This document shows, piece by piece, positions 11,188-30,100 of a DNA stretch of 64,000 bases (position 1 is its first letter; the number at the start of each line of letters is the position of its first letter). The notes beneath the pieces are model-generated. The model saw nothing but the letters and a program-made list of their open reading frames with translations. It did not search any database and had not been told where the DNA came from. Position numbers and translations under genes: made by a program. The DNA is from Candidatus Marinacidobacterales bacterium (lineage in GTDB: Bacteria > Acidobacteriota > Vicinamibacteria > Marinacidobacterales > DATDRI01), in contig OZ244742.1 in the NCBI GenBank assembly GCA_965219415.1, positions 1,344,001-1,408,000 on the forward strand, read 5' to 3'.

Positions 11188-12222
11188 ATGTCCGACGAAC
11201 CAGCGACCGACCCGAAAAACGACGAGATCCTGCTCCTCGCGACCGAGAGTCAGGCCTACGCTTTCGATCTTTCAGAGACCTTCCGCATTGCGATTGGTCG
11301 GCACGAATCCAACGACATTCAGCTGCACTCTCGCAACGTCTCGAATCACCATGCGGAGCTATTGAGCGAGGCGGACGGTGTCCATTTACATGACCTCCGC
11401 AGCACCAACGAAACGCATCTGAACAACGAGAAAGTCCGCGAGCGAGTCATTGCGAGCGGCGACAACATCCGGATCGGCAGCCACGTGATGACCGTGCACC
11501 TCAAGCCGCGCAAAGTGGCGCGGGAAGGAGCGTCCCGGCTCTATAGCAAAGGAGCCTTCGGGATCGGCACTTCCGACAGCTTGGTTCCCGCGCGCGATAC
11601 TTCCGAACAGCCCCGAAAAACGCACCCCTCGGGGAGCCCAACCGACCTTCCGCTCGCCGATCTTCTCAAGATCTTGACGACGCTCGAACGGCTCACTCTG
11701 CTGGTCGTTCGAAATGGGGCCGCGGATGAGGCAAAGATCGTCGTAGGCAAGGGCGGACTCCTCCACGCCGAGTGCGCTACCGCCAAAGGAGAGAAGGCGC
11801 TTTATCGCGTTTTCCGGTGGGATCACGCCACTTACCATTTACAAGAAGTCCCCCCCGGCTCGGACTCGATGCGCACGATAGCTCTACCCACGGATACGCT
11901 CATCTCAGAGGGTGTCCAACAGGCCGACGGAGTGGACAATCTACTCGCCCAACTGCCAGAAGCACGCGCCGCGCTCACGCTGAAAGAGGACTGTCCGCTG
12001 CCGCTCGCGGCCCTCTCCCCCGCGGAGATCGGCGTCTATCGAAGCCTGATCCGCTACGAAACGATCGAAAAGGTCCTCGAAGCCTCCCAGCTTCCCGACT
12101 ACAAAATCCTTGGCCTGCTCCAGGGGCTAATGCGGAAAGGCGTCTTCGAAAACGCCGAAGCCGTGGACGGATTGCTGGAAGGAACCAGCGTTTCCCTACC
12201 AAAAACGACCGGATCCTCCTAA
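11188..12222 (+). CDS. FHA domain plus DUF4388-like protein
   Basis: IGRHESNDI, VSNHHA, DLRSTN (FHA); LADLLKIL...GEKALYRVFRW (DUF4388-like). Confidence 0.8.
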   Translation: MSDEPATDPKNDEILLLATESQAYAFDLSETFRIAIGRHESNDIQLHSRNVSNHHAELLSEADGVHLHDLRSTNETHLNNEKVRERVIASGDNIRIGSHVMTVHLKPRKVAREGASRLYSKGAFGIGTSDSLVPARDTSEQPRKTHPSGSPTDLPLADLLKILTTLERLTLLVVRNGAADEAKIVVGKGGLLHAECATAKGEKALYRVFRWDHATYHLQEVPPGSDSMRTIALPTDTLISEGVQQADGVDNLLAQLPEARAALTLKEDCPLPLAALSPAEIGVYRSLIRYETIEKVLEASQLPDYKILGLLQGLMRKGVFENAEAVDGLLEGTSVSLPKTTGSS

Positions 12223-12357
12223 CCCCGGCCTTCCGCAACTACCTTGGGGGAATGCTCCTTCCCCGAAAATATTGACCCGACAAAGTTGCGTTGCGTTTCG
12301 CCTGGAGTGGTCCCATTTGGCCGCTCATCACAACAGTCATATGCTTTAGGGCCAAGT

Positions 12358-13083
12358 ATGATGACAAGAACCGACATCCTCCCGTACTACATGCTCCTCG
12401 TCTCAGTTCTCCTCGCCGGATGCGGCGGCGACTCAACCCCCAGCCCCACGACGCCTGAGACTCCCGGCCAGGTCACACTTGCTCACGTCATCGAGGCGAT
12501 GTTCCTGGGCCGGGGTCCGGCGTCATCGGCAAACACCTCGTGCCCGGTGCGAGGGGCTTGGGCCTCTTTCGCGCGGGGAGCCATCGTTCGAGTCATCGTC
12601 GGATCGAGTGTCACGCAACCGCAAAGGAGAGCGATGGAGAGGGAGCTGCGAGCCTTCGAGCTCGCCAGCGGTGGCATCCTCAGGATCGTTGCCGAGGGTA
12701 GCGGCGACCCGAACCCCTTCCCCAACCCTTTCGAGGTCACCTCCGCTACGTTGACGGACGAGGAAGTGGTGGCCCTATGCGGCGCGGGTGCGGGCGGCTG
12801 TCTCGTTGCCGTCCAGGCGAGCGGTCACAAGCTGATCAGCGGGAGGACCGTTCAGAAGAATCAGTTCGCAGGAACGGTGCACGTCCACGAGTTGGGGCAC
12901 GCACTCGGCCTCTGCCACATCAACGGAGCAAGTCTGCCCAATGCGGTCATGGCCAACCCACAGCAAGGCTCTTCCGACAGCTTTGTCGCCATGGAGCTTC
13001 AGGCGATCGAGGCCGTCTACGCCTCCGGCCTGGAGCCCGGGGCGACAGGGGTCGAGTTTCAACGGGCCGGGCTCATCGAGTAG
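12358..13083 (+). CDS. Matrixin-like zinc metalloprotease lipoprotein
   Basis: Lipobox LLAGC; HELGHALGLCH followed by a Met-turn (AVM). Confidence 0.8.
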   Translation: MMTRTDILPYYMLLVSVLLAGCGGDSTPSPTTPETPGQVTLAHVIEAMFLGRGPASSANTSCPVRGAWASFARGAIVRVIVGSSVTQPQRRAMERELRAFELASGGILRIVAEGSGDPNPFPNPFEVTSATLTDEEVVALCGAGAGGCLVAVQASGHKLISGRTVQKNQFAGTVHVHELGHALGLCHINGASLPNAVMANPQQGSSDSFVAMELQAIEAVYASGLEPGATGVEFQRAGLIE

Positions 13084-13172
13084 AGGCAGCGTCGACAACG
13101 TGGCCTCCCGGCCTGCCAACCGTCGGCTACCAAGGTCCTTAGCATCGTCCTGGAGCTGGTGGCCCCGGCCTT

Positions 13173-13461
13173 TTACGTAAGGAACTCTTGGAGCGGTTCC
13201 CAGTACATCTTAGGCCAACCCGCTTCGAGATGCCCCTTCTCGCCCTGGGGAAAGCCGGACTGGTCGAAGACCAGCCGTGTCCCCTTGCCGTCCTCCCGGA
13301 GCTCGAATCGAACCACCGAATAGACTCCATCTTCCCAGTCCGCCGCCCGCCAGGCTTGAACGATGCGGCGGTCGGGAACGAGCTCCACCTGTCGCCCCAC
13401 GATCCTGTCTCCGAAGCAAGAGAAGGGTCCACCTTCGTCTCGACTGATTTCGGCCGGTGCG
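13173..13461 (-). pseudogene. 5'-truncated SRPBCC/Aha1-domain gene
   Basis: APAEISRDEGGPFSCFG...RIVQAWR...GWPKMYWEPL; the N-terminus is replaced by an FG-GAP fragment. Confidence 0.75.
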
Positions 13462-13624
13462 CCGCCGGTGCCGGTCCAGCGAAGGCTGCCGTCGTTGTTC
13501 AACACTTGCCGGCCCAGGATGATCTCGGGCGCGCCGTCCCCGTCTAGGTCGGCGAGGGCGGGGCCACCGTCTCCGGTACCCTCCACGTTGGAGCTCAACC
13601 ACTTGACGGTTCCGTCATGCTCGA
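13462..13624 (-). repeat. Adhesin FG-GAP fragment, near copy of 29850-30012
   Basis: 163 bp with about 7 mismatches by manual comparison, mostly synonymous. Confidence 0.9.
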
Positions 13625-13656
13625 CGCAACGGTCGGGCACGCGGTAAAATACATGC

Positions 13657-13878
13657 ATGCGACTTGTAACGGGCAAGGTGGTCGAAGGCAAGGTCGTCGT
13701 CGAGGGTGATCCTCTTAAGGAAGGGTCCACCGTCACCGTTCTCGCTCCGGAGGACGACAGGAGTTTTGAGCTCACACCGGAGCAGGAGGAGCTCCTCCTC
13801 CAAGCCATCCAAGAAGCCGAGCAAGGAGACTTCATCGATGGTGAACGGTTCCTTAAGGAACTCGACGAGCGAGGGTGA
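13657..13878 (+). CDS. Putative antitoxin (module 1)
   Basis: Small acidic protein (LTPEQEELLLQAIQEAEQGDFIDGERFL) whose stop overlaps a RelE/ParE gene. Confidence 0.75.
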   Translation: MRLVTGKVVEGKVVVEGDPLKEGSTVTVLAPEDDRSFELTPEQEELLLQAIQEAEQGDFIDGERFLKELDERG

Positions 13879-14186
13879 CGGCGTCACGACGCGTCAGAGT
13901 CCTTCGAAGAGCATCCCGCGAGATCCGTGAGGCCTCCGCGTGGTGGGCTACGAACCGGCCCGCAGCCCTCAACGCCTTCAACGAAGAGTTCCGACGAGCC
14001 TTTCTGTCTCTCTCCAAGCAACCTCTAGTCGGGCCGCTTGTCGCCGACGCCAGGTTCCCCGGCGTCCGACGCATTTACCTTAGTCGCATTCGCTATCACC
14101 TCTACTACCGTGTGAGCGCCGACGGACATGCTGTAGAGATTCTTGCTCTTTGGCACGGCCATCGCGGATCGGAACCCAGACTGTAA
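13875..14186 (+). CDS. RelE/ParE family toxin (module 1)
   Basis: RASREIREASAWW...GVRRIYL..IRYHLYYRV...VEILALWHGHR. Confidence 0.85.
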   Translation: MTASRRVRVLRRASREIREASAWWATNRPAALNAFNEEFRRAFLSLSKQPLVGPLVADARFPGVRRIYLSRIRYHLYYRVSADGHAVEILALWHGHRGSEPRL

Positions 14187-14622
14187 CAGGTTTTTTTTCG
14201 GGACACCCTATGGGTCAGCATTGTTGGCACGGGCTCGCCGTGTTAACCGCTGAAGGAACGAGGCGCTCCAAGTTTGGCTCTTCCTTCGCTTGCGCTTCTG
14301 TTTCGAACGCTCTGCGGACTCTCGATCTAAACCAGCCTTCTCAAAACCGGTTTTTCGTGCCGCAAGCCATGGGCTTCACCGTACAACGGGCTTGCCCGTT
14401 CGGGGTTCCGCCTCGTCCGTAGCCCTCATCCCCAGCGTGGCCCGGAATTCGTCACTTTGAATATCAGCTAACGCTCCCGCCCGGTCCCCCGCAAAGTGCG
14501 CACGCCCTTCGAGAAACTGAGGACGGCAGGTCCTTCGTCTTTCGTCGCACGGGACCTCCACCCAGCATGTGTTATCCTGATCTCAGTCCCACTCCCCGAC
14601 ATCATTAAAGGAAAGGTCCACC

Positions 14623-17154
14623 ATGAAGGGGAGCTCTGACGCCGAACGCCTTCTCGTCGCGCTGGCGAATCACCCCGATCTCGACCCCGATGCCCTGCGC
14701 GCCCTGCTCAAAGCCACTAGACTTCTCGGCCTTGCTTGTGGAGCCCAGCTCGCCCAGTACAGAAACTCCGAGGAACCCCTTCAAGTCGCTTTTGCCGATG
14801 TGCGAAGGCTCGCTCTATTGGCGCGGTGTTACGAAGCGGTCTCCCGAATCCTGTCCGAGCGCTGGCAAAAGATTCCCGAAAGACGTCGGCCTCATTACAC
14901 CCCACACCTGCGATTCCAGATCCTCGAGCTCAAGTCTCTCCTTGGCCTTTCCCAGAAGGAAACCGCCCAGCTCTTTGCGATCTCGAGAAACACCGTGGCC
15001 CGCTGGGAGCAGGAAGTCGCGGCGAACCCAGAACAAAAAACCGTGGGCTCGCTCGTTAAGCCGGATCCTCCTGTCCGGCGCTACGCCGATGTCGTCCGCC
15101 ATCTCATCCACACCATACGCCTCAACGGTTTCGGTGTGGGCTTGATCCGGTTTCGTAGACGGTTTAGTTAAGCTGGCGAAGTCCTCATCCGTCGTTCAAA
15201 CTCGGCCGGACTGACCTGGCCGAGGGTCGAGTGTCGTCGTCTCTGGTTGTAGAATACCTCGATGAAGTCGAAGAGGGCCATCTTGGCCTCGCCGCAACTG
15301 AGGAAATGCTCCCCAAGCTCGTGCTTGACCGTGGAGAACCAGCTCTCGATGACGGCGTTGTCGTAGCAGTTGCCCCGTCGGCTCATGCTCCCGGTCATGC
15401 CATGCGTCTCAAGGAGACGTTGGTAGTCTTTGCTGGCATACGGACTGCCCTGATCGGAGTGATGCAAGAGCCCCGCGGCCGGTTGGCGACGTTTCAGTGC
15501 CATCCGCAACGCTTTGATAACCAGGTGACGGTCGTTAATAGCACTTACGGCCCACCCAACGAGGAATCGCGAGTAGAGGTCGAGGAGCGCCGCGAGATAA
15601 AGCTTCCCGCCGCTGCCGATCACGAACTCGGTCGTGTCCCCGACCCACCGTTGGTTCGGCGCATCGGCGACGAAGTCTTGCCCGAGCACATTGGCCGCGA
15701 CGGGCTGGCCATGACCGCTTACCGTCGTGCGCTTGAAGCGTTTGCGTACTCGAGCAATGAGGCCTTCTGCCTGTTTCAACCGAATCACCCGCTTCCGACT
15801 CACTCGATACCCCTGCTCGTGCAGGTCGTGATAAATCCGCGGACTCCCATAGGTGCGGCGACTCGCCTCATGGGAGGCACGAATCAACACGCGCAACTGG
15901 CGGTCCCGGCGCGCGTGGGCCGACGGCGGCCGACGTACCCAGGCATAAAAGCCACTCCGAGAGACGTTGAGAATCTGACACAGGTGAACGACCGGTACGG
16001 TGGCCTTCTCCGCCTGGATGAACGCGAATCTTACTCGCTCTCCTTCGCGAAGAAGGCCGCGGCTTTTTTTAAAACGTCGCGCTCCACCCGCAACCGCCGA
16101 TTCTCTTTGCGGAGCCGCCGAAGCTCCTCGCGTTCCACGCCCGTCAAGCCCGTCCGGCCCTTCGTCCGATCGGCCCGGGCCTGACGGACCCAGTTGCGAA
16201 ACGCCGATTCGGTGAGGTCAAGCTCCCGGGCCACCCGACCCACGCTCTGGCCCTCATCAAGCACCAGCCGGACCGCGCCTGCCTTAAACTCGTCATCAAA
16301 CTCCCGGCGGGGTCGCCGGGGCTACGTTGTCTTTGCCATTGTGGACATCGTATCCGCCTTTCAGAAAGTGTCCACGAAACTGGATCAAGCCCAGTGGCTG
16401 CAAGCAGATCGCGCAAACGCTCGCCAGGGCCGGCTGGAAGCTCCACCGACGCACCGTCGGGAGAATACTGAAAGAAAAGCCTCCAAAGGCTCCGGTTGCT
16501 GTGAGAACAGCAGGGCCCGCCCGAACTCCCCGCGCTCGCCATCCCCATCACATCTGGATGGCCGACATCACCACCATCCCCAGCCTTTTTCGATTATTCT
16601 CCTTCAAGTTTGTGGTCGTCCTCGATGTCTTCTCGCGTATGCCGCTCGCCGCCAAGCTCTTCTGGAAAGAACCCTCCGCCCACCAAATGTGCCGGCTGAT
16701 TCAACGGGCCGCCCTTCGTTTCGGCCCGCCCCGACACTTCGTCTCCGACAAGGGATCCCAGTTCACCGCCAAGCGTTTTCGGAAAACCCTTCGCCGGTTT
16801 CGCATCCAGCACCGATTTGGAGCCATCGGTCAGTGCGGCTCCATCGCAATCATCGAGAGACTTTGGAGAACTCTCAAAGACGCCTTGAGCCTTCGCTCGT
16901 TCAAACCCTTGATGAGAGTGGATCTCGAGCGCAGGCTAGAAAAAGGGCTCTACTACTACACTTACCTTCGACCGCACCAGGGTTTGGCGAGTGCGACACC
17001 GGCTGAAGTTTACTTCCGTCGAGAACCGGCCCATCTAGCCGCTGTCCATCCTCCTCGAGCACGACCTCGAGAAGGACCCGTCGTTTCTCCTTTTGAGATC
17101 GACTATCTCGACCCGGACAAGATGCTTCCGGTTCTGATTCGCAAAGCAGCCTAG
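14623..17154 (+). pseudogene. rve/DDE integrase-transposase (IS481-like), copy 1, interrupted by IS3
   Basis: HTH (LSQKETAQLFAISRNTVARW), WMADIT, SDKGSQF, IERLWRTLK, RPHQGL. Removing the IS3 restores GFGGC as in copies 2 and 3. Confidence 0.88.
15137..16393 (-). mobile_element. IS3-family insertion sequence
   Basis: TGGGCTTGATCC...GGATCAAGCCCA inverted ends and a 3-bp GTG target duplication. OrfA 16031-16339 has an in-frame TAG at 16322-16324. OrfB ends at 15168 (WVGDTT, HSDQGS, CYDNA). A7G slippery site at 16063-16070. Confidence 0.93.
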
Positions 17155-17289
17155 CTGCTTCGCTCAACCTCAGGGAATCGACGGTCGTCGTGTGTCTGAT
17201 CCCTTACGTGCGGCGTTGACAGCGCCCGAAACAAAGGACCTAGGGATCTTAGAAGGCGGGTTGAGCCTGAAAAACGATTGGATCCGCGG

Positions 17290-17314
17290 CTCCAACTCCC
17301 ATTGCACCCGTACA
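17290..17314 (+). repeat. Conserved integrase-element terminal motif, copy 1
   Basis: CTCCAACTCCCATTGCACCCGTACA; recurs at 20451, 20479 and 23481. Confidence 0.85.
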
Positions 17315-17396
17315 CGTACACACACCCATCGATCAAGACGTTTTGCCGGTAGTTGTTGAAGATCTCCCAGTTGTTGGGCTCCCGCCGCGGAATCGT
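17315..17396 (-). repeat. Adhesin fragment homologous to 29029-29110
   Basis: TIPRREPNNWEIFNNYRQNVLIDGCVY vs TIPARESNNWELFNNYRQNVLIDGCVY. Confidence 0.88.
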
Positions 17397-17525
17397 GAAG
17401 GGGGCACCCAACGTTCGGAGAACTATTTCAAGCCCTCTCGAACTCGAGACTGGGTTAGCGCACTACTGCGTGTACCGTTTGATACGCAATATTATGTATG
17501 TTACTCTATCTTTAAGGAGGGTGTT

Positions 17526-18242
17526 ATGAACCTGGTCATCTACAGCCAACCTAGCCTTAGGTCCACAGCAGAGGCGTTGATTCATCGACTTGGAGTTGAG
17601 GCGGAGTCACAGGTGAGTAGCTTTCCCGTCGCGTTGCGAGCGTTGCCCCCACGGGCTCACTGCGTGCTCGTGCTTTCCGGGAGCGAACCAACCGAGCTTA
17701 TACAAAACAGCCTGGCAAGGCTGGCACGTGGAAGGCGTTGGTCTGGCAAGCTTGTTCTGTATTCCGAGATGCCTAATTTGGAATCGGTTGTTGAGTGGGG
17801 GCGCTTGCTAGAAAGGCATCTGCCGAGACGGTCCTATGTGTGCTTCATGGATAACAAGGTGGCCGACGTACTGAAACTCCGTCCTATTCACACAGGACAG
17901 GGACCCGACACCAGCAGCATTCAAGCGGGGGAGACTTCGACTTTGCGTGGTGACCTTGGCCTGACACAGGAGCAGTTGGCCGCAGCTATCGGCGTTAGTC
18001 CCAGGACAGTTCAAAACTGGGAGTTCGGCAAGGACTCTCCACAGATCGAGCGGCGACTCCGCGATCTATTGGAGTTGAGGCAAGTACTCAAGGAGTATCT
18101 GCCACCTGAGCAGATTCAGCGATGGTTAAGGTCTCTCAACGACGCCTTCGCAGGGGCATCTCCACGAGATTGGATCTTAGATGGCAGAACGCGGGACGTT
18201 CTCATTGAGTTTCGTCGTCTCCAAACAGGCGAACCCTGGTGA
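17526..18242 (+). CDS. Xre/MbcA/ParS-type antitoxin with XRE HTH and extra N-terminal domain (module 2)
   Basis: AAGGAGG RBS; LGLTQEQLAAAIGVSPRTVQNWE; C-terminal WLRSLNDAFAGASPRDWI. Confidence 0.82.
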   Translation: MNLVIYSQPSLRSTAEALIHRLGVEAESQVSSFPVALRALPPRAHCVLVLSGSEPTELIQNSLARLARGRRWSGKLVLYSEMPNLESVVEWGRLLERHLPRRSYVCFMDNKVADVLKLRPIHTGQGPDTSSIQAGETSTLRGDLGLTQEQLAAAIGVSPRTVQNWEFGKDSPQIERRLRDLLELRQVLKEYLPPEQIQRWLRSLNDAFAGASPRDWILDGRTRDVLIEFRRLQTGEPW

Positions 18243-18817
18243 AACTTCAAGGGCGATGGGAACCACTACTTGCCGAGTTGCGCAGCGAGGCTTCTCCTCT
18301 CGAACGCAACTTCTTTCGCTCAGTCGAAATGCGCCACGCGCACCCCGACGACGTCCTCAGCGGTGAGGGTACACGCCGGAATGGAGGGCGTTTCGTCCGT
18401 CCCGGGGTCCGCGCCGTCTATCTTGCCAGCGACGAGGAGACCGCGTTCTGCGAGGTCACGGCGCGAAAACATCGTCTCGCGGGACACAGCCAGATCCAGT
18501 TGACGGATTACCCGCGAGTCACCTACGTCGTCCAGGTCAGACTGAAACAACATATCGACCTCGCCGGTCGGCGCACAGAACCGGAGGTGGGCGAGCTTGT
18601 CAGTGCTTGCCTCGCCTCGGATATCCGTGTGTCCCAAGCGGTGGGGGAGGCCGTTTGTAATGCTGGAGTGCAAGGGATCGTTTACCCGTCCGCGGTCCCC
18701 GAATGCAAAGGGACGAATCTCGTCGCGTTCCAGGATATTCTTCCTCGGCCGGAGCTGAAGCTTGTGAACAGAGACCGCGTAATCGCGCTTTTCAAGGAGT
18801 GGTCTGAGCGCGGCTGA
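18239..18817 (+). CDS. RES-domain toxin (module 2)
   Basis: FFRS, GGRF, VYLA..EETAFCE, GIVYPSA and NLVAF. Confidence 0.88.
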   Translation: MKLQGRWEPLLAELRSEASPLERNFFRSVEMRHAHPDDVLSGEGTRRNGGRFVRPGVRAVYLASDEETAFCEVTARKHRLAGHSQIQLTDYPRVTYVVQVRLKQHIDLAGRRTEPEVGELVSACLASDIRVSQAVGEAVCNAGVQGIVYPSAVPECKGTNLVAFQDILPRPELKLVNRDRVIALFKEWSERG

Positions 18818-19040
18818 TCTCATTGAATGGCGGTCACGGCCCGTCTCAATCGCTCTCTCCAGCCTACCGCTTGCGATTTCAGGCACAGCCACAGCCCACG
18901 GCAAAGTGCGGCACGCCCTTCGATGGACTCAGAAACGGAGGCCCCTTCGTCTTTTTTCGTCGGACGGGACCTGCCTCGCCCACCCTGTGTTATCCTGATC
19001 TCAGGTCCACTCCCCCAACATTCTTAAAGGAAAGATCACC

Positions 19041-20313
19041 ATGAAGGGGCGTTCTTGTGCCGAAAAGCTCCTGGTCTCGCTGGCCACCCAGCCCGATCTC
19101 GACTCGGATGCCCTGCGCGCCCTGATCAAAGCCACTCGACTTCTCGGCCTTGCTTGTGGAACCCAGCTCGCCCAGTACAGAAACTCCGGTGAGCCCCTTC
19201 AAGCCGCCTTTGCCGACGTACGAAAGCTCGCTCTGGTGGCGCGGTACTACGAGGCCGTCTCCCGAATCCTGGCCGAGCGATGGCAGAAGGTCCCAGAGAG
19301 GAGGCGGCCTCATTACGCGCCACAGCTGCGATTCCAGATCCTCGAGCTCAAGTCGCTTCTCGGGCTTTCCCAGAAGGAAACGGCCAAGCTCTTTGCGATC
19401 TCGAGAAACACCGTGGCTCGCTGGGAGCAGGAAGGTGGCGACAAATCCCGGAAAAGAAACCGTGGGCTCACTCGTCCGTCCGCACCCTCCCGTCCGGCGC
19501 TATGCTGACGTCGTCCGCCAATTGGTCCACACCATGAGGTCTGCCGGTTTCGGTGGCTGCGAGAAGATCGCCCAGACCCTCGCTCGGGTAGGTTGGAAGC
19601 TCTCCAAACGCTCCGTCGGGAGAATGCTGAAAGAAAAGCCGCCCAAGACGTCGATCCCATAAAGAACGCTAGGTTCAGCCCGAGCTCTCCGCGCTCGCCG
19701 TCCCGATCACTTCTGGATGGCCGACATCACAACGATCCCGAGCCTCTTTCGATTGTTCTCCTTCAAGCTCGTGGTCGTCCTCGATGGCTTCTCACGCATG
19801 CCGCTCATCGCTAAGCTTTTCTGGAAAGAACCGTCCGCCGGAGATATGAGCCGTCTGCTCCGAACCGCGGTGCAGCGGTTCGGCTCTCCCCAACGCTTCG
19901 TCTCGGACAATGGAAGGCAGTTCACGGCAAAACGTTTTCGAACAACGCTGCTCCGGTTGGGCATCCGACAGCGCTTCGGTGCCATCGGTCAGGTCGGCTC
20001 TATCGCGCTCATCGAAAGACTTTGGAGAACTCTCAAAGACAGCTTGCGCCTGCGTTCGTTCAAGCCCTTGATGAGAACAGACCTCGAACACAGGCTTGAG
20101 CAATGGCTCCATTACTACACCTACCTTCGACCGCACCAGGGTTTGGGCGGTGCCACCCCGGCTGAAATCCACTTCGGTCGACCACCCGCCCATCTAGCCG
20201 CCGTCCATCCTCCTGGGGCACGACCTCGCGAAGGTCCCGTCGACTCTCCTTTTGACATCGCCTATCTCGACCCGGAAAAGATGCTCCCGGTTCTGATTCC
20301 CAAAGTCGCCTAG
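19041..20313 (+). pseudogene. rve/DDE integrase-transposase, copy 2 (frameshifts near 19432 and 19660)
   Basis: Same motifs as copy 1 over three ORFs. Confidence 0.88.
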
Positions 20314-20450
20314 CTTCACTGCCGAGCATCGACGATCCCACGGTCGTCGTCTGCCCTGAACCTCACCCACCGCGCCGACCTCTCTCGAAAGGGCGGATCC
20401 GGACTGCATTCAACCGCTGTTCGGATCGAAGAAACGAGTCACATCTCCCG

Positions 20451-20503
20451 CGCCAACTCCCATTGCGCCCCTACACCGCTCCAACTCCCATTGCACCCCT
20501 ACA
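20451..20503 (+). repeat. Terminal motif in tandem duplicate (20451-20475, 20479-20503)
   Basis: CCAACTCCCATTGC(G/A)CCCCTACA twice. Confidence 0.88.
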
Positions 20504-20833
20504 TGATGTATCGTTCGCGCTGAGATCGCGCCCCTCGACAGTAAAAAGCTCGCTGCCGTCGAGACCACTGACAATCCGAATGGCTCCGAGCGCGCTATTA
20601 CTACGCGAGGTGAAGGCCACCTCGGGGAACCCATCCACATCGAGGTCCACCACGATGGGAGTCGATATCACGTTCACCTTAGTGGGCTGTACGGGAGAGC
20701 TGTTCCAGGACCAGTTCTCCACCGGGGTCAGCGGAGCCGGCATGGGTGGGAGGAAGCTGCAGGCGGGTTCCGTGTTGCCGACATTGTTGTCCTCACGCGA
20801 CTCGAGGACGGCGTTGGCACTATCCACGAAGAC
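20504..20833 (-). pseudogene. Diverged adhesin CARDB/FG-GAP fragment
   Basis: FVDSANAVLESREDNN...WSW...DLDVDGFPEVAFT...VSGLDGSELFTV aligns with the giant gene at about 30130-30426. Confidence 0.85.
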
Positions 20834-21229
20834 GTTTCTTCACAGCGTGTCTCCCTTGGAATTACGTGCCTCGTATGCCAGGTAGGGTCGGATGAACGTG
20901 AGATGTCTGTTGCTGTTCACGTCTTCAGCTCCACCCTGGAGGCGGTTAACGCCGGCCTCGGTGATGTGATCGACGCCTTCCGCCGAGGTAGCGGGCGTCC
21001 TTCAGTTCTTCGGGAATCCCATCCACGGTCTCCCACACAGGTGGTCTTCTGTCGGGAGCGACGGTCTCACTCACCGGCCGCCACCTTCGACTCCCACAGC
21101 CTCGAGCTCGCCGGAAGCATCTGCTATAATTGATTATGGCCGTACCAGCGCACGATCCTTTTCGCGCCCGTCCCGAGAAGGTTGTCCACGGTGTCATCGA
21201 AGGTGCCGTTGGCGTTCCGATCTTCGAAG

Positions 21230-21415
21230 ATGGCCACGTCAAAAACCGACGTCTTGCAGCTACTCCGCGATATGCCCGACGAAATCGATGCGGACGATTT
21301 GATTTACAAGCTCTATCTCAAACAGAAGTTGCACTCAGCAGAAAAAGCAGCGGCGGATGGTGACACCGCCACTCATGACGAGGTTGTCAAACTGAGCGAC
21401 GAGTGGCTCAAGTAG
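21230..21415 (+). CDS. Putative antitoxin (module 3)
   Basis: MATSKTDVLQLLRDMPDEIDADDLIYKLYLKQKL...HDEVVKLSDEWLK overlapping a RelE gene; extended -10 TGCTATAAT at 21122-21130. Confidence 0.78.
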   Translation: MATSKTDVLQLLRDMPDEIDADDLIYKLYLKQKLHSAEKAAADGDTATHDEVVKLSDEWLK

Positions 21416-21709
21416 CTTGGACAGGGCCGGCCATCGAGGATCTCCGCCAAATCCACGAGTTCATCGCCCGTGATTCCAAGCGTTATGCTGGTGTTACTGT
21501 AAGGAAGATTAGGAGTGCCGCTGCACGCCTCCGAGATTTCCCAGAAAGTGGCGGTGTTGTCCACGAGCTCGCCGAGAGCCAGTACCGAATGGTGCTAAGT
21601 AGGCAACTACCGGGTCGTTTACCGCTATGTCCCGGGCAAGAAGCTCGTCTTGATACTGGCAGTCATTCACGGCAGTCGGCTTCTGCCTCCCGTCATCGAA
21701 AAGAGATAG
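21403..21709 (+). CDS. RelE/ParE family toxin (module 3; frameshift near 21598)
   Basis: VAWTGPAIEDLRQIHEFIARDS...FPESG; the shifted frame gives GNYRVVYRY...LILAVIHGSR. Confidence 0.82.
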
Positions 21710-22070
21710 AGACAAACCGGCGCCCAGCGGTCTAGAGGCGGGCGAGCACGAACACAGCTCCGATGGCTCTTCGTCCACCATCAAGTCCCGGAGCGCTCAT
21801 CGACTCTCCGCGGACCCTCGAAACATCTCGACCAGGCTTTCAAAAACGGATTGATCGGACTCCAGATTCGAGCACCTCGTTTAGCAGCGCTGGAGCGCCC
21901 TGTTCCTCGTGGCCACGCAGGCCGCGGCGTTCCCCCGCCAAAGTGCGCTACGCTCTTCGATAGACTCAGGACCGAAGCTGCTCCTCGCTAGGTAATGGTT
22001 TCGCCGCGCTCACCATGTGCTATCCTGAACTCAATCCACTCCCCAACATTATTGGAGGAAAAAGTCCACC

Positions 22071-23343
22071 ATGAAGGGGAGCTCTGACGCCGAACGCCTT
22101 CTCGTCTCGCTTGCCAATCAACCCGCTCTCGACCCCCGATGCCTTGCCCGCCCTGCTCAAGGCCACCCGACTCTTCGGCCTCACCTGTGGAGTCCAGCTC
22201 GCCCAGTACAGAAACTCCGGCGAGCCTCTTCAAATCGCCTTTGCCGACTTGCGCAGGCTGGCCTTGCTGGCAAAGTGTTACGAAACCGTCTCCCGAATCC
22301 AGGCCGAGCGATGGCACAAGATTCCCGAAAGACGTCGACCTCATTACACCCCACCCCTACGATTCCAGATCCTCGAGCTCAAGTCCCTCCTTGGCCTTTC
22401 CCAGAAGGAAACCGCCCGGCTCTTTGCGATCTCGAGAAACACCGTGGCCCGCTGGGAGCAGGAAGTTGGGGCGAACCCAGGCCAAGAAACCGTGGGCTCG
22501 CTCGTTAAGCCCGAGCCTCCTATCCGGCGCTATGCCGATGTCCTCCGCCATCTCGTCCATACCATGCACTCCGCGGCTTTCGGAGGCTGCCAGCAGATCG
22601 CCCAGGTTCTCACTCGGGCAGGGTGGAAGATCTCCGAACGCTCTGTCGGCAGAATCTTCAAAGAAAAACCCCTTAAGCCGCCCACTCCCGCACCATCGGC
22701 GAAACCTACTCGAGCTCTCCGCGCTCGCCACCCCAACCACATCTGGATGGCCGACTTCACCACCATCCCGAGCCTTTTTCGATTGTTTTCCTTCAAGCTT
22801 GTGATTGTCCTCGATGTTTTCTCAAGAATGCCGCTCGTCGCCAAACTCTTCCGGAAAGAACCCTCCGCCCGACAAATGAGCCGGCTCGTTCAACGGGCCG
22901 CGCGTCGTTTCGGCCCGCCCCGACATTTCGTTTCCGACAAGGGAAAGCAGTTCACTGCAAAACGTTTTCGCAAAACACTGCGACGGCTCGGCACCCGACA
23001 GCGCTTCGGTGCCATCGGGCGGCACGGCTCCATTGCCATCATCGAAAGACTCTGGAGAACACTCAAAGATGCCTTGAACCTTCGCACTTTCAAACCCTTG
23101 GTCAAAGCCGAACTGCAACAACGGCTCGAGCTCGGGCTTTACTATTACACCCGCCTTCGACCTCACCAGGGTTTGGGTGGTGCCACTCCCGCTGAAGTCT
23201 ACTTCGGCCAAGCACCAGCCCATCTCGGAGCTGTCCATCCTCCTCGGGCGCGACCTCGAGAAGGACCCGTCCATTCACCTTTTGAGATCGCTTATCTCGA
23301 TCCAGATCAGATGCTTCCGGTTCTGATTCGCAAAACTGCCTAG
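22071..23343 (+). CDS. rve/DDE integrase-transposase, copy 3 (frameshift near 22135)
   Basis: Most complete copy: WMADFT, SDKGKQF, IERLWRTLK, RPHQGLGGATP. Confidence 0.88.
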
Positions 23344-23480
23344 CTTCTCGGCCGAGCGTCGACCAATCCCACGGTCGTCGTCTGCCTTGAACCCTACGTG
23401 GCGCGTCGACATCTCCCACGACCAGGGATCCAGACTACATTCAACGGGCTTGGAACCGGAAAAACTACTCAGATCCGCCG

Positions 23481-23504
23481 CTCCAACTCCCATTGCGCCC
23501 CTAC
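23481..23504 (+). repeat. Terminal motif, copy 3
   Basis: CTCCAACTCCCATTGCGCCCCTAC. Confidence 0.85.
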
Positions 23505-23708
23505 CGGATTCCATTTATTTGCAGGGGGCGCCTCGGCAGGGGGGTTCCAAGGCGGGAAACCAAGGCGGGGGAGGCGCGGCACGCCCTTTGCCCACTCCGC
23601 ACTTAAGGGTGGGCGGGGTGATTGAGCTGGCGCATCGCGTCTCCGGTGACGAAGACCTCCGCGCGGAGGAAGCATCGGCCGGCTTCCGGAGCCGGGGAGG
23701 TCTCTTCC

Positions 23709-24110
23709 TTATTCCTCAACGACTGGCCTTCGCCGTATCACATACCTCTTAGTATAGGGTTCGTGCATGGTCGGGGGAAACCTCCACAAATCCGATGAAC
23801 TGATAGACTCCTCCTCCGCATCTTTCTCTTGAGCATGACTGCTTCGGTAATAGAAAACCTCTCCATCGGAAACGTCTAGCAAGGTATTTGCCATTCTCTC
23901 CAATTCCCGAAAGATTGCGCTTTCAGTGTCTGCGCTCTCATACACGGAAACGTAAACTTCGACCCTTTTCGATTGACAGATGTTTGGATCATTTAGTTGC
24001 TTATCTGTGAGGCCGGTCACCTCAGACTCAAGCTTACAATCGACGAGCCGTCCGCCAATCTCCTCTACCGCTAAATTGGAATTTAACTCGAATATGGCAA
24101 CTTTCGACAT
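23709..24110 (-). CDS. Putative immunity protein for the RHS toxin
   Basis: Starts 18 bp after the toxin stop with a GGAGAGG RBS; acidic and visibly lower in GC. Confidence 0.72.
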   Translation of the reverse strand: MSKVAIFELNSNLAVEEIGGRLVDCKLESEVTGLTDKQLNDPNICQSKRVEVYVSVYESADTESAIFRELERMANTLLDVSDGEVFYYRSSHAQEKDAEEESISSSDLWRFPPTMHEPYTKRYVIRRRPVVEE

Positions 24111-24128
24111 TTCCTCTCCCGGTTTTCT

Positions 24129-27100
24129 TTACTTCGTAGTCAACCTTTTTGGAAAGAGAAAGTGGTGTATGTCTTCGTCTGGTGGTACGTGAAAATGAAC
24201 CGTCACATTATGCTTCGGAAATACCCGCGTTACAGGATGCCAGTCGAATCGGATAATGAGACTGTTAAGCCTGAGAATCCTATGCCCTAATCTTACGCCA
24301 AATATTCTTTGCTTGTCACCCCCCCTTTCAAAAAGAATGAAACGCCCTGTTCCTCGACGGGTCAAGCTGCTCTTTCCTGGCTTTCTGGATGTTGGAAGCT
24401 GGATGACTAGTTGGTAATCCTTGATATGTCTCCTAACACGTTCCAATGTCTCTCGAACCCTCTGGCTCGTTTGACGTATCGCCTCCGGCAGAGCCAAAAA
24501 GATCACATCTCCAGTATCCCGGGCTACGTCTTGGAAGGCTTTGTAAACTTCTGAAATGGCGATCGACGGCCCTAAGGGTGCTTCCAGAGTCTCCAACACG
24601 GCAGTGCGCAATACAGCGGTTGCTGCGAGCGCCACGACAAAAACGACCGCTAGATTCGCCTCGGCGACGGTAATCTGTTTGCCAGTGGGATCTAGGTTGT
24701 TGACTGGATCCGCATGCGCATACAAGTACTTGTGAAGGCTTAAAGGATCCTGCAGCACACCTTCAAAAGGATCTAAGCTGACGAACCTTCCGACCCGCGG
24801 ATCCAACCACCGAGCGCGGTTGTAGGAGAAGCCCACGTTGGGATCGAAGGGCTCTCCGGCAAACTGGTACGGCTGCGGATCGATGCCGACGTGGTCTAAC
24901 TGCTCCCCGAAGGCAGTATAAGTGTAGCTATCCGTGACGTTCCCTACCTCATCAGTGAGGAACCGAATAGAGCCCAATCCATCGGCGTGGTAGAAACGAG
25001 TCTCGGTGGGTCGGGTAACGGCGAGAAGGTCGTCGACGCCTCTTACATAGTAGGCAATGAGGTTGCCCGCGTTGTCGGTCTCGGCGGCCACGTGGCTGAG
25101 AAAACCTGAGGGGTCGACCAAGAAGTTCGTGACGGAGGGCGGCCCCGTCGCGGGAGTGATTTCCGTTCGGACGCGGTTACCGTCCGCATCGTACGCGTGC
25201 GTGACGACCGTCCCGTCGGCTTTCTCCACGCGGACGAGCCTGTCTTCGAAGTCCCAGAAGTACGTGGCCTCGGTGGACTTGCTAGTGAGGTTCCCGTTGT
25301 CGTCGTAGCTATAGACGGTTCCGTTTTCGGTCAGGAGCCGATCTCGATCGTCATAGGCGTAGTTGACGACGCCGGCACCGAGGCCTGTGGTGGTTTGGAC
25401 GTCTCTGTTACCCACGGGGTCGTAATCGAAGACCTTCTCATAGACCAGCCCAGTCGTGTCGCTGACCTTGTCCCCTGTCAACCGATAGAGATCATCGTAG
25501 GTGTACTCCCTGAAGGTCCCGTCGGCCTCATCGATGCGTTCCCGGTTCCCCGCCAGTCCCAGCGTGAAATCGTAGGACTGGATGACGCCCGACGGTCCCG
25601 TTGTGGTCAGGTCCGTTAGCCGGTTGAGGGTGTCATAGCCGTAACTCGTGGCCGTTGCATTCGGGTGGCTGAGTGAATCACGGTTTCCATTTGGATCCCA
25701 ATCGAAATCATACTGCCCAGCATTCGGGTCGGCGACGATATCCAAACGGCTCGCGTCGTCGTAGCTGAAAGCAGTTGTCAGCACGGTCGTCTCCATTGTA
25801 GCGATCAGACTGGTCCGATTGCCATTGCCATCGTAGCCGTACTCGAGCTTTCGTCCATCCGGGTAGGTCAGAGTTTCCAGACGGTCCCTGTCATCGTACG
25901 CGTAGTTCGTGACACCCCGGGAGTCGGTGGCGGTTTCTCGCCGGCCTGTGTTCGTGTAGGTAAATTCCACGAAGCTCGTGTCGGGAAAATTCCTCCGCGT
26001 TAATCGATTGTTGACGTCATAATCGAATGTGATCGCATTCCCGTCGAACTTCGTCCAGGTCTTGAGGTTCCCGGTCGCGTCATACGCCTTGGTCTCGAAC
26101 GTTCCGTCCGGGAGCGTTCGCTTGGTCTCCCGCCCGAGCTCGTCATACTCAAAGCTGGTGACGTGGTTGTTCGTGTCTTCTTGCTCGATACGGTTTCCGA
26201 CCTCGTCGTAACGATAGATCGTCTCCTGATTGAGAGCGTCGATGACCTTCGTCAGCCGCCCCAAGCAGTCATACTCAAACCGAGTGATCTTGCCGACTTG
26301 ATCCTTCTCGCTGATACGGCGTCCCAGGCTGTCGTAGGTTGTCTCTGTGAACGTGGTATCTGGAAAGATGGTCTTGGTTCTTCGATTCAGCTCATCGTAC
26401 TCGAAGGTCGTCGTACTCGAGCTTGGCGTCCCGCACCGAGATCTGGTTGCCGTTGGGGTCGTAGCCGAAGACGGTCTCATTGCCCAAAGGATCTCGGATG
26501 TGGGTCCTCCGACCCGCCCGGTCATACTCCAAGAACGTAGACTTGCCGCGGGCGTCCACGGTTTCTACTAGCCTTCCCGCATCGTCGTAGACGCTCTCGG
26601 TAAAAGTTAGATCAGGGAAGATCGTCGTCGTGAGGCGACCCAAATCGTCGTATTCGAACGTGGTCACGCGACCCTCTCGGTCCCTCGAGGTGAGTGTTCT
26701 ACCTTCCACATCGTAGGTAAACTCCTCGGTCGTTAGATCGGGGAAGGTGGTCTTGGTGAGGCGGCCCATGTCGTCGTATTCGAACGATGTCTTCCGATTC
26801 AGCTTGTCGAAGCTTTCCACCTGCTTCCCGAGCTCGTCGTAAACGATTCGCGTGGTGGTTCCGTCCGGATCCTCCGTGTCAGTGAGTCGATCCTGCTTGT
26901 CGTACGTGAACGTCGTCACCAAGGTCTCGACGCCGCTTGGAGTGGTCCTGGTCCTCGTCTCGGTGCGGCGGTTTCCGTTGCTGTCGTAGGTGAAGGTTGT
27001 CTCATTCCCTAACGCGTCGATCTCCTTGGTGAGGTTGCCAGAAGCGCTGTACTCGAACTCAGTGACACATAGCTCTCCTTCCACAAGAACAGTCTGAGTT

Positions 27101-30100
27101 TCCACATTACCTTGAGCGTCGTAGGTGAAGGTCGTCTCATTCCCCAGAGCATCGATGGTTTTCTCGAGATTGCCGTTGGCGTCATAGACGTTGGTGGTCA
27201 CTTTCTCGCGGGAGTCCTTGACAGTCAAGACCTGGTCCCTATTGTTGTAGGTGAACTCCGTCCTGTTCCCCTCCGGATCGGTCACATTGGTCTGGTTGTC
27301 CCGATCGTCGTAAGTGAAGAATGTGGTCGGAGGATCGGCCTCCGAAGGATCATGCACGTCAGTCTCCGAAAGGCGATTGTTGTCGTCATCAAATGTCCTC
27401 AAAATGATCTTCCCATTCGGATCCGTCTCCCGAAGTACATTCCCCCGATCGTCGTATTCCAACACCCTGATATTGTCCTCGCGGTCCTTGATGATCTCCT
27501 GTCGGGTGTCGAGATCATGGGTGTACTCGATGGTCTTGCCAAAGGCATCGGTGTGGCTGATGAGCCTTCCCGACACGGGATCGTAGTCGTTGCGGATGGG
27601 CGTGATGCCCCTGGGGTCTTCGATCTCGTCCAGGTGATGAGGTATCGAAGACAAATAACCAAACGTCGTGGTGTTGTTCTCACGATCGGTGTTGGTCTCC
27701 AGATCCCCACTGCCGTCATAGACGTAGAACATGGGGTTGCCTTCGGGATCGATGATGGACTCAATCCTACCCTGAGCGTCCCGGTTAAAGACCACACCCT
27801 TGCCACTCGAGTGTGTAATCCCGCCCGGACTGATCGTCAGCCGGTTGTCATTGAGATCGGTCAAACTCTGGAGTCCTTCACTCTCGTCAATTACTAACTC
27901 TCGGCCGTCTCTCATCGTGAGACGATACCGGTCCGCGTCGTAAACCGTAAAATCCGATTGCCGGAAAAGCTGCACCGTTCCCGGGAAGGCGCCCACAACC
28001 AAAGCCAAGTTACCGTCCGCGGGCTCCAAGCTCGCTGACGCTTCCCTCGAGCAGAGTACTAGCCACGGAAATCGCCTGATCCGCTCCGGCGCTCACCACC
28101 GGAGCTTCGTTCTGGGGAAACACCGTGACCACCGCTTCGTCGAACACCGTGAACTCGGTGTCGGTGGCGGTCAGACGCAGCACATAAGTTCCCGGATCCA
28201 CGAACGTCGCCGTCGTCAACGGAGAGCTCGGGTCATCCAATACGACCGGTCCAGGTCCCGTGAAACTCCATGTCGACGTCACCGTGGCACCCCGAGGAAG
28301 CCCGTCGTCGGTCACCGAGCCCGAAAGCGTCACCGTGTCCACGGGCAGGATGATCGATTGATCCGGCCCCGCGCTGACTAAAGGCGCCTGATTCGGCGGA
28401 ATGACCGTGATCGTTACCTCATCGCTTCCCGTTAAATCCAAATCATCCGCCGTCAACCGCAACACATATTCTCCCGGCTCCACCATCGTCACCGTCGTCA
28501 ACGGATCCATTGGATCGGTGAAAACCAGGCTCATCGGTCCACCGACCTGACCCCAGAAGGTGTTAAGAACACCGATCGGAAGACCGTCATCGGTGACCGT
28601 GCCGGCTAAGGAAACGACGAGAGACGCTCCCTCTAACGTCAGCAGCTGATCGGCTCCTGCATCGACCACGGGCGCTTGGTTCGGTGTGGCGGTCAGAAAA
28701 ACCTGACCATCGACCGCGTTGTTGGTCTCATCCGATTCGGTATGGAGCCCGACCAAGCCGCCTTCATCATCGGCCACCACCCACAAGGGGAGGGCTTCCG
28801 TCCCCACCGGAACGATCAACGACACATCCCGGAACTGTCGGCCGGCAAGGCTCTCCGTCCGAGTCGTGCCCAGGAGGATTCCACCCGAAGCCGGATCGCC
28901 GTTATAGAAAGACACACCGATCTCCGGGCCCGCTGCATTACCTCCCCCGTTTCCAAGCCGCGCCGTCAACACCACGTCGCTCCCTACCGTCTCTTTCCTC
29001 ACGAAAGACGCCGTCAGGTCGGGAAGGGCGTACACACACCCATCGATCAATACGTTTTGCCGGTAGTTGTTGAAGAGCTCCCAGTTGTTCGACTCTCGAG
29101 CCGGGATCGTTCCGTCGTCGTTGATGTTGGTGATGTGGTAGGTGTACTGGTTCCAAAGAGCTCGAGTAGGCACCCACCGCTCGGAAGGTGTTCCGTAGAC
29201 GAAGATCCCCGCCACGGGGACGGGATTATTGAACTCATTCGCCACCACCACGATCTCCGCCTTGCCGTCCACGTCGACGTCGGCGATGATCGGGTATTCG
29301 AGCCTCGTTGCGCTTCCGATCTCCGTCTCGAAGACCACCGTCCCGTCCGTGCCGTCGAAGACACGAAGCCTCCGTTCATCCGCATACACCACTTCTGCGA
29401 AACCGTCGGCTTCGAAGTCGAAGGCCGAAGAGCCGGTGATCGAGGAGCTGCCGTCGCTTATTGGCACGCTCCACTTGCTCACACCCGTGTGCTCGAAGAC
29501 CTGGTAGCGGCTCCGCCCGGCAACACCGATCTCGGGCTCACCGTCGTTATCCAGATCCGCCACCAGAGGCGGACCTCCCGTGCCTCCCTGATCGATAGGC
29601 ACGGGCCCCCACTTGATCTCACCGGAGTGCTCGAAGAGAAACACGTCTCCGTTCGCCACCAGGACGACTTCTGGGAACGGATCGTCGTCGAAGTCCGTCA
29701 CCGCGATCCAGCCATCGCTAAGCTCTGGGTGATCCCAGTAAATGTCGCCGTTGGCCCGGTAGGCGGTCCTACCCGCCACGATCTCCGGGATTCCGTCCAG
29801 GTCCAGATCCGCCACCCCGGCGAGCGGGTTTCCGAGACGGCCACCCCGACCGCCGGTGCCGGTCCAGCGAAGGCTGCCGTCGTTGTTCAACACTTGCCGG
29901 CCCAAGATGATCTCGGGCGCGCCGTCCCCGTCTAGGCCGGCGAGGGCGGGGCCGCCGTCTCCGGTACCCTGGACGTTGGAGCTCAACCACTTGACGGTTC
30001 CATCGTGCTCGAACGCGATTAGTCGATTCTGATTCTCCGCGACGGCCACGATCTCGACGCGGCCATCTCGATCGATATCTCCCACCGCCACAGGCGAGCC

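Follow-up and report, generated by a model that had tools for sequence, protein, structure and literature searches.

The window examined here, the whole 64,000-nt stretch of DNA that was analyzed, lies at C1:1344001-1408000 of its source genome (G000; 8.05 Mb, three contigs) and carries, at 13462-23504, an array of three co-oriented rve/DDE transposase genes, each of which was found by open reading frame (ORF) and Pfam profile searches to lie behind its own toxin-antitoxin (TA) operon. An initial annotation of this DNA had described the layout as TA pairs, integrases, a shared end motif and pieces of an adhesin gene, and our analysis confirms that description. The layout is real and unusual, and it recurs among related soil bacteria; the boundaries of a mobile unit and a targeting of adhesin genes are unproven. 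In the array units, a profile search found only rve, helix-turn-helix (HTH) and TA domains, and no transposase or resolvase of the Tn3 type.

The DNA that the three units have in common runs from about 130 nt before the ATG of the transposase gene to exactly the shared motif, with the TA pairs outside. The CCAACTCCCATTGCRCCCSTAC pattern matches the window exactly at four places, each on the + strand (starting at 17292, 20453, 20481 and 23483), compared with none in 100 shuffles, and is confined to these four sites in the whole G000 genome at up to 2 mismatches. The motif lies 133-146 nt past the integrase stops, with one tandem duplicate. Its occurrence after unit 1 (RE1, 17292..17315, +) has the 3´ end ...CCCGTACA, the two after unit 2 (RE2a and RE2b, 20453..20503, +) start 28 nt apart, and that after unit 3 (RE3, 23483..23504, +) lacks the terminal A. 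Among homologues with at least 45% amino acid identity and at least 260 nt of downstream DNA, 48/50 carry the motif downstream of the gene, with a mean consensus share of 0.90 over 21 nt compared with 0.49 in the upstream flank and 0.38-0.48 in the downstream flank. Both misses are explained, one by a 1-nt indel in the motif and the other by an internal insertion that places the motif further out. A sister clade, with approximately 50-57% amino acid identity, carries the same sequence inverted, TGTAGGGGYGCAATGGGAATTG, about 85-105 nt before the start codon in 8/8 copies. These sister elements are 1489-1502 bp long and end in TGTAGGGG...CCCCTACA, with TGT...ACA termini and inverted repeats of about 25 bp. 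Given the inverted partner upstream in the sister clade and the conservation downstream, we identify the motif, from comparison of sequences, as the right terminal inverted repeat (right end, RE) of an insertion sequence (IS) family, and its initial annotation as a transposon end is thus borne out.

The three transposase genes are the sole members of the family in G000, where the other 88 matches are at most 30% identical, and all three are broken. Copy 1 (int#1, 14623-15133 plus 16394-17154, +; Pfam rve and HTH) is recovered by tblastn in two pieces, q1-171 and q171-423, and is split by a 1260-bp IS3-family insertion (15134..16393, -). This insertion carries orfA (16031-16264) and orfB (15168-15896), scores 280 bits against the NCBIfam IS3 cut-off of 160, and has inverted repeats at 15137-15165 and 16365-16393 with 86% complementarity; without it, int#1 is an open frame of 423 codons. 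Copy 2 (int#2; leader and gene 18896..20313, +, ATG at 19041) is broken by one extra nucleotide at about 19432 and by an in-frame TAA at 19660. Copy 3 (int#3; leader and gene 21912..23343, +, ATG at 22071) carries one extra nucleotide within a C-run at about 22134; its frame is open from 22111 for the remaining 410 codons, with the DDE residues intact. Two or more of the breaks differ from one sequencing run to another. In run X7, a contig passes directly from 15133 to 16394, with 3 letters in common, which is the site without the IS3 element (the same contig has an extra C after 15110), and in run X1 a contig is without the additional base at 19432. Because either break, the IS3 insertion or the frameshift of int#2, is missing from some contig of another run, both are probably recent. 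The depth of the IS3-family element in four runs is about 10 to 85x that of neighboring DNA, and it is therefore a high-copy IS.

At least 626 protein relatives of the transposase are present in public data, under database names that place them in Vicinamibacteria and Acidobacteriota. The nearest of them have 79-82% identity and lengths of 418-423 aa. The top 11 database matches (418-423 aa) are intact, as are all three copies in G401, a closed genome of a sister species in the same genus as G000, and each intact homologue consists of one ORF (413-423 aa) that contains rve. We surveyed 79 metagenome loci, three genome-contig loci and the loci from 480 genomes of the phylum and close relatives, and defined the window clade as copies at least 66% identical to copy 3. 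This clade comprises the three window copies, the three G401 copies, a 5´-truncated copy in G402 (L057) and the metagenome loci L060, L061, L062/L065, L077 and L083, with one to three transposase copies per genome. Two loci of genome G407 (L058 and L059), which we left out of all counts, show similar features: an adhesin fragment, a HigB/HTH pair and 5´-truncated copies. The window copies are not one another's closest relatives; copy 1 falls into a group with the G401 copies, copy 2 into one with L060/L061/L062. With the exception of one G401 pair at 97%, the clade transposases are 74-85% identical in pairwise comparison, compared with approximately 86-89% for orthologous DNA of G000 and G401, and thus the transposase lineages predate the split between these two genomes. 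The ratio of nonsynonymous to synonymous substitution rates (dN/dS) among intact clade transposases is 0.14-0.34 in 15/15 pairs; the genes are under purifying selection.

Despite the conserved right end, no left inverted repeat is found in any of the 10 clade copies that have an N-terminus. The conserved leader (CCCACGGCAAAGTG...), which in unit 1 spans 14487..14622 (+), begins, according to alignments, at the position of the left repeat in the sister clade, and keeps only the inner GCAA.G.G, the outer TGTAGGGG being gone. We also considered a left end upstream of the TA pairs, which was rejected. The RE pattern, searched on both strands with up to 3 mismatches, gave no left end beyond the TA pairs, and Smith-Waterman alignments of the four inverted right ends with the three upstream intervals, TA pairs included, gave none scoring above the 95th percentile of 100 shuffles. 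Terminator-like hairpins with a T-rich run behind them occupy the same position in the leaders of unit 1 (14519-14535, +) and unit 2 (18935-18950, +), between the vestigial left repeat and the start codon; these are consensus matches only, and their overall count is not above chance. A promoter and terminator scan gave site counts not above those of shuffles (3 versus 2.2 and 15 versus 10.8).

All three upstream operons are predicted to be of type II, each consisting of small adjacent or overlapping genes with a match to a toxin family. Operon 1 (13657..14186, +) encodes a putative antitoxin of 73 aa (13657-13878) and, overlapping it, a ParE-family toxin (13875-14186; Pfam ParE_toxin, E = 2.2e-8, 35 bits against a cut-off of 23). 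Operon 2 (17458..18817, +) encodes an Xre-type antitoxin (ORF 17343-18242, with a probable start at about 17523; HTH_3, E = 2.4e-10) and a RES toxin (18239-18817; E = 2.4e-20, 73.6 bits against 23.2), with matches to NCBIfam Xre_ParS and Res_ParT that are under cut-off. Operon 3 (21182..21735, +) encodes a 77-aa putative antitoxin and a second ParE-family toxin (E = 5.5e-6); here the match, 27.3 bits against 23, is partial, spanning only profile positions 1-58 of 89, and the toxin may be truncated. Antitoxin and toxin genes overlap by 4, 4 and 13 nt in operons 1 to 3, and a profile search gave no family match for the 73-aa and 77-aa putative antitoxins. A second Xre-RES operon is found at an unrelated site in G000 (C3:568581-569147, L170), without a transposase or end motif. 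Its toxin is 68% identical to the window RES protein, and it matches just the operon (window 17477-18817, 70% nucleotide identity). The homology of TA cassette 2 with L060 begins at window 17458. Since its boundaries are shared with the free L170 paralogue, the cassette of unit 2 corresponds to a complete TA operon.

This association is not peculiar to the window. A TA toxin gene, co-oriented with the transposase, lies directly upstream in 8/10 clade copies, and the toxins belong to five TA families: ParE twice (window), RES twice (window and L060), DUF5615/PIN with DUF433 twice (L061 and G401), and MazF twice (G401 and L077). No TA operon was found at the six sister-clade loci with a normal left repeat that we examined. 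The initial annotation had proposed a TA-linked, one-ended element. This idea is supported in part, by the upstream TA genes and the missing left repeat; TA operon and transposase are not one fixed unit, and the boundaries of a mobile unit are unproven. An arrangement that the same annotation had set against its own proposal, ordinary paired inverted repeats without TA, is present in the sister clade, close to the gene.

Comparison of relatives further points to separate histories for the TA operons and the transposases. The Xre-RES-transposase-RE block of unit 2 can be aligned colinearly with L060 along 3027 nt (84.7% identity); within it, the TA cassette is 86-95% and the transposase 77-85% identical, with an indel-rich spacer between them. 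Similarly, a MazEF cassette common to G401 and L077 is 86.5% identical, and the adjoining transposases 75.6%. The transposases of L060 and L061 are 85% identical, yet lie behind RES and DUF5615, respectively. Because the two modules diverge at different rates, they are, as judged from these alignments, reshuffled rather than parts of one fixed transposon, and the idea that TA pair and transposase form a single fixed element is not upheld.

The copies also show head-to-tail patterns beside right ends. Tandem right ends 3-7 nt apart are found in the window (20448-20503) and at five further loci of both clades (L032, L066, L079, L081 and L103), and at L061 the last ~80 nt, including the end, are present three times. 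We considered whether the RE2a/RE2b pair might reflect a 28-bp target duplication, an explanation rejected given that canonical sister copies have no long flanking repeats. At L077, only 0-2 nt separate the RE of a truncated copy from the MazEF unit behind it, at L060 the RES unit begins 40 nt past an RE, and in G456 copies that are 83% identical to each other abut directly. Copies that are 5´-truncated and retain RE are common, and the left limits of transposase homology are ragged, falling 45-160 nt before the ATG. For IS30 and IS911, the available text of one source (PMC9333248) describes orientation-specific insertion beside a resident inverted repeat, leading to head-to-tail IS dimers. 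The arrays resemble these systems in having head-to-tail copies beside a terminal repeat and putative deletions adjacent to ends (PMC9333248). As described in that text, the IS30 and IS911 reactions are transient, join left repeat to right repeat a few bp apart, and involve identical copies, whereas the copies here are old and 75-85% identical, have TA operons between them, and show right-right tandem ends. End-targeted insertion may be the most economical account of co-oriented arrays.

We suggest, with a probability of roughly 45%, that the array belongs to an end-defective IS lineage whose TA, transposase and RE modules persist in a variable adhesin-RHS island, having grown by end-targeted insertion and been reshuffled by recombination. 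According to this model, the window clade would have retained RE and lost the outer, cleavage-proximal part of the left repeat, leaving copies that are end-defective and slow or rarely moving, some of which may still be mobile. The TA operon would probably provide read-through transcription into the transposase gene, and would probably make loss of the module costly, including loss by recombinational deletion between direct repeats. Arrays would extend head to tail through insertion beside a resident right end, and homologous recombination between the conserved transposase and RE flanks could make the TA operons swappable cassettes. Deletions or rearrangements that start at RE could place adhesin fragments at the ends.

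Several observations weigh against this model. No movement event was observed. The sole near-identical pair of copies, at 97% in G401, might have marked a recent transposition and with it the left end, an interpretation that we rejected: the flanks are diverged homologous leaders and, since the limits of the pair fall inside them, the pair looks like gene conversion. Two of the 10 clade copies, L062 and int_a of G401, have no recognizable upstream TA. Among more distant loci, a TA-like gene is near 3/~20 (L069, L149 and L156), so that more distant clades without a detectable left repeat are mostly without a Pfam-recognizable TA, and TA linkage thus does not strictly accompany loss of the left repeat. 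A pattern derived from RE may also miss distant left ends; in G456, an imperfect left end is visible solely by comparing two copies, and a third, 98.9%-identical copy defines this end. The co-orientation count rests on approximately five independent TA types, and the loci come from related organisms, so that the counts overstate independence. Finally, if the copies are immobile, it is difficult to account for purifying selection on transposases without a usable left end, which favors a mechanism that is one-ended or uses asymmetric ends.

This last point is the strongest one for a discrete, TA-carrying DDE transposon with one end or asymmetric ends, in line with the initial annotation. The TA operon would lie inside this element, whose left terminus would vary or be a surrogate sequence, and repeated insertion into adhesin-RHS genes or beside resident right ends would build up a cassette-like array. 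The long colinear block shared by unit 2 and L060 would fit such an element, as would the start of TA cassettes where a left end is expected in the tandems at L077 and L060, the ragged left limits and the frequent truncated copies with RE. Adhesin pieces between an RE and the next TA operon could then be co-carried flanking DNA. We nevertheless regard this transposon as unlikely. What speaks most strongly against it is that TA and transposase histories are discordant, that no RE-related left end lies upstream of any TA operon and that no transposition event was seen. Target duplications were not seen either; even among canonical sister copies, a possible 4-bp repeat (AGCT) flanks 1/7 and none is found at the rest. 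Circular or empty-site forms of the units are also lacking among the assembled contigs, which cannot show rare forms, and the adhesin fragments at its supposed target are as compatible with shared descent as with targeting, as outlined below.

The fragments between the units all derive from an adhesin-RHS gene or a paralogue. Fragment B (13462..13650, -), with FG-GAP sequence, is 92% identical in amino acids to window 29864-30016 and 94.5% identical in nucleotides to a G401 adhesin fragment. Fragment C, an 82-nt piece (17315..17396, -) that was missing from the initial annotation, directly follows RE1 and is 83-85% identical in nucleotides to fragments at L077 and L059 that match window 28734-29204. 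Fragment A (20503..20827, -) abuts RE2b, with 52% amino acid identity to window 30095-30421. We rejected the idea that fragments B and A flank one simple insertion. In the paralogue only a 78-nt gap lies between them, but their identities to it (92% and 52%) differ greatly and the order is broken by fragment C, which shows a history other than that of a single insertion.

Adhesin or RHS DNA lies within the fetched locus at 7/9 clade loci. This extends the initial observation of such DNA next to the units, with the qualification that these loci, being from related organisms, are not independent of one another. At L061, L062/L065 and L083, as in the window, an RE points toward the 3´ end of an RHS gene and nothing but small ORFs intervenes, and the units of G401 and L077 are flanked by adhesin fragments. 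In G401, two units and a 3.4-kb 5´ part of an adhesin gene make up an 8.1-kb block, within which an RE abuts the position equivalent to window 35119 and whose site is empty in G000 (C3:224622-224645); the units thus travel, or are inherited, with adhesin DNA. The fragments beside units have one orientation and their source lies within the gene at 28.7-30.6 kb, save for the G401 junction at window 35119. Some junction positions recur across genomes, such as 29204 in both L059 and L077, and from these alignments a few old events followed by rearrangement may be no worse an explanation than repeated targeting. The initial proposal that the adhesin locus is a repeated target is thus not shown: the loci come from related organisms, junction positions are common to several of them, and a small number of old events may account for them all.

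The array occupies a variable island. Window 13470-40165 is a 26.7-kb segment between conserved flanks that contains the array, a putative immunity ORF and the adhesin-RHS gene, and in its place G401 has an unrelated 8.6 kb (C1:3591316-3599956, L182) with a second AHSA1 gene and an AbiEi-type antitoxin. Synteny with G401 stops at window 13469, which sets the left border at 13469/13470, at the AHSA1/SRPBCC 3´ remnant (13173..13469, -; Pfam AHSA1, E = 1.8e-16). The island removes the first ~31 codons of this gene, whose G401 homologue is complete at 129 aa. Beyond RE3, a 133-aa ORF and the C-terminal RHS piece of the adhesin-RHS gene lie at 23709..26525 (-; RHS_repeat, E = 3.2e-47). A profile search gave no family match for the 133-aa ORF, which is a putative immunity protein by position only. 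Pieces of the giant gene are found at 35030-36586, 34074-35339, 28010-32659, 26392-28029 and 24129-26525, with an IS256-family gene (Transposase_mut) inside it at 32662-34002 (-). As these pieces overlap in different frames, the adhesin-RHS gene appears broken.

Such a setting raises the question of whether the array is a passive pile-up, in which dead relics of an ordinary IS accumulated in a TA- and IS-rich variable island with no functional link between them. TA adjacency and adhesin fragments would then merely mirror a site that tolerates insertions, together with survivorship and rearrangement. The three broken window copies, the IS3- and IS256-family insertions in the island of an IS-rich genome, the fragmented adhesin-RHS gene, the unrelated DNA at this hotspot in G401 and the free Xre-RES paralogue without a transposase would all be expected. 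However, many clade members are intact, among them all three G401 copies and the top 11 database matches, and their dN/dS values are low. RE is conserved well above its surroundings, two of the window breaks vary between runs and are probably recent, and all eight upstream TA operons are co-oriented, compared with none present at the six sister-clade loci. We consider a pile-up rather unlikely.

The position of the right end also allows for co-option, with the transposase-RE block serving as a portable homology arm or recombination site for exchange of RHS toxin tips and immunity genes. RE faces the RHS 3´ end at the four loci named above, with only small minus-strand ORFs between, the RHS cores are 72-78% identical, the toxin tip and small ORF of the window differ from those of L061, and copy number per genome is low. 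Nothing, however, ties the transposase to RHS recombination. Some units lie away from RHS 3´ ends (L057, L166 and L165), the sister clade is a normal multi-copy IS, and the RHS gene of the window is itself broken, which together make this role very improbable. Orphan toxin-immunity arrays are known to sit downstream of rhs and contact-dependent inhibition (CDI) genes. The array resembles these in lying downstream of an RHS toxin gene and a putative immunity gene with fragments of the main gene present, but the fragments come from the N-terminal adhesin (FG-GAP) rather than from toxin tips, and the repeated units consist of transposase and TA.

The lineage that we favor, an end-defective IS with associated TA operons, can be compared with several known systems. 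IS481-family elements have a single DDE (rve) ORF, paired inverted repeats with TGT...ACA and short target-site duplications, and IS3-family elements have two overlapping ORFs joined by programmed -1 frameshifting. The transposase shares with both an rve core, DD(36)E spacing (D215, D276 and E312 of the 410-aa frame) and an N-terminal HTH. Like IS481, it is encoded by a single ORF, and the sister clade has TGT...ACA termini on a 1.5-kb element. Unlike IS3, intact members have one continuous ORF and no two-ORF frameshift layout. An extra N-terminal region of ~95 aa sets the family apart from both, as does the window clade, which has a TA operon in place of a recognizable left repeat; paired TGT...ACA repeats are present in 8/8 sister copies, and the window clade has the right end only. 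The initial comparison with IS481-like elements is weakened, as the transposase falls under the NCBIfam cut-offs for IS481 and IS3 alike. Scores with the IS481 model (NF033577) are 118.4 bits for window copy 3, 112.2 for L060 and 89.7 for the sister locus L064, against a cut-off of 224; those with the IS3 model (NF033516) are 121.8 and 126.4 bits against 160. Plasmid-borne relatives, annotated as IS3, are at most ~31% identical. Judged by these models, the family would best be called IS3/IS481-like and unclassified.

One-ended transposition behavior is known for ISEcp1. The window clade is like the one-ended elements IS91 and IS801 in having one conserved end, variable DNA opposite, and putative deletions that start at the element end. 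These elements use HUH rolling-circle enzymes, whereas the window family is of the rve DDE type and no one-ended event was observed at the locus. An integron has a tyrosine recombinase (IntI), attI and attC sites, and promoterless cassettes; here, by comparison, the recombinase is rve/DDE and the cassettes are complete TA operons. We consider it doubtful that a single-end rve/DDE lineage uses interchangeable TA operons as left promoter and addiction module and, by insertion beside resident right ends, builds head-to-tail arrays of cassettes at adhesin-RHS loci, which would resemble integrons but depend on a DDE transposase in place of a tyrosine recombinase.

A closer precedent for the TA linkage is the Tn3 family. 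In the available text of PMC7157771, diverse type II TA pairs (ParE, Gp49, PIN and others) lie beside the transposition genes of Tn3-family transposons rather than as distal passengers, TA modules are exchanged between related elements, and a regulatory or stabilizing role is proposed. The window clade similarly has diverse type II TA operons adjoining the transposase and swapped between related copies. As described there, Tn3 elements have TnpA, a resolvase, a res site and two good ends, in contrast to the small rve transposase without a resolvase found here; the arrays and the association with RHS genes that we see are not noted for the TA elements in that text (PMC7157771). In Pseudomonas syringae plasmids, according to the accessible part of another source, TA systems reduce IS-promoted deletions (PMC6354349). 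Word searches of open-access literature returned no comparable report of TA pairs in small IS3/IS481-like elements; such reports may exist elsewhere.

If the linkage is functional, transposase genes and addiction modules would have become coupled a second time, independently of the Tn3 family as described in the available text of PMC7157771. It would also offer a natural system for studying the persistence of a DDE element that has lost one end, the possible protection of direct-repeat arrays from collapse by TA operons, and the influence of mobile elements on the variable DNA behind RHS toxin genes in Acidobacteriota. To our knowledge, the mobile elements of this phylum have been little studied. 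If the array is only a decaying pile-up, less is gained: a widespread, uncatalogued IS family, with at least 626 protein relatives, is defined together with its terminal repeat.

The continuity of the array, questioned at first, is supported by short-read contigs from two studies that cover all unit junctions (13519-14645, 16833-19160, 19388-20859, 20836-22047 and 22437-24500), with the proviso that the runs may include the source sample of the assembly and are possibly not independent of it. Run X1 (0.31 of sampled words) gave short pieces only and was unusable for array structure. Contigs of runs X4, X7 and X9 join window 13624 to 21197, skipping 7572 nt, with 34 letters on the shorter side. 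A direct comparison of the region after the adhesin paralogue with 21150-21300 gave matches of at most 13 nt; the joint is unexplained, or may be due to cross-mapping of the adhesin paralogue. An Rfam scan of window 12000-25000 gave no family that reached its gathering score. G000 is a very IS-rich genome, and contains, for example, more than 60 matches (~81% identity) to approximately 1.13 kb of a G401 IS (L166 16441-17572, rve_3/HTH_21), including one at C3 4726163-4725072. Near the right border of the island, a gene at 38647-39780 (+) encodes a 377-aa protein with an HNH endonuclease domain.

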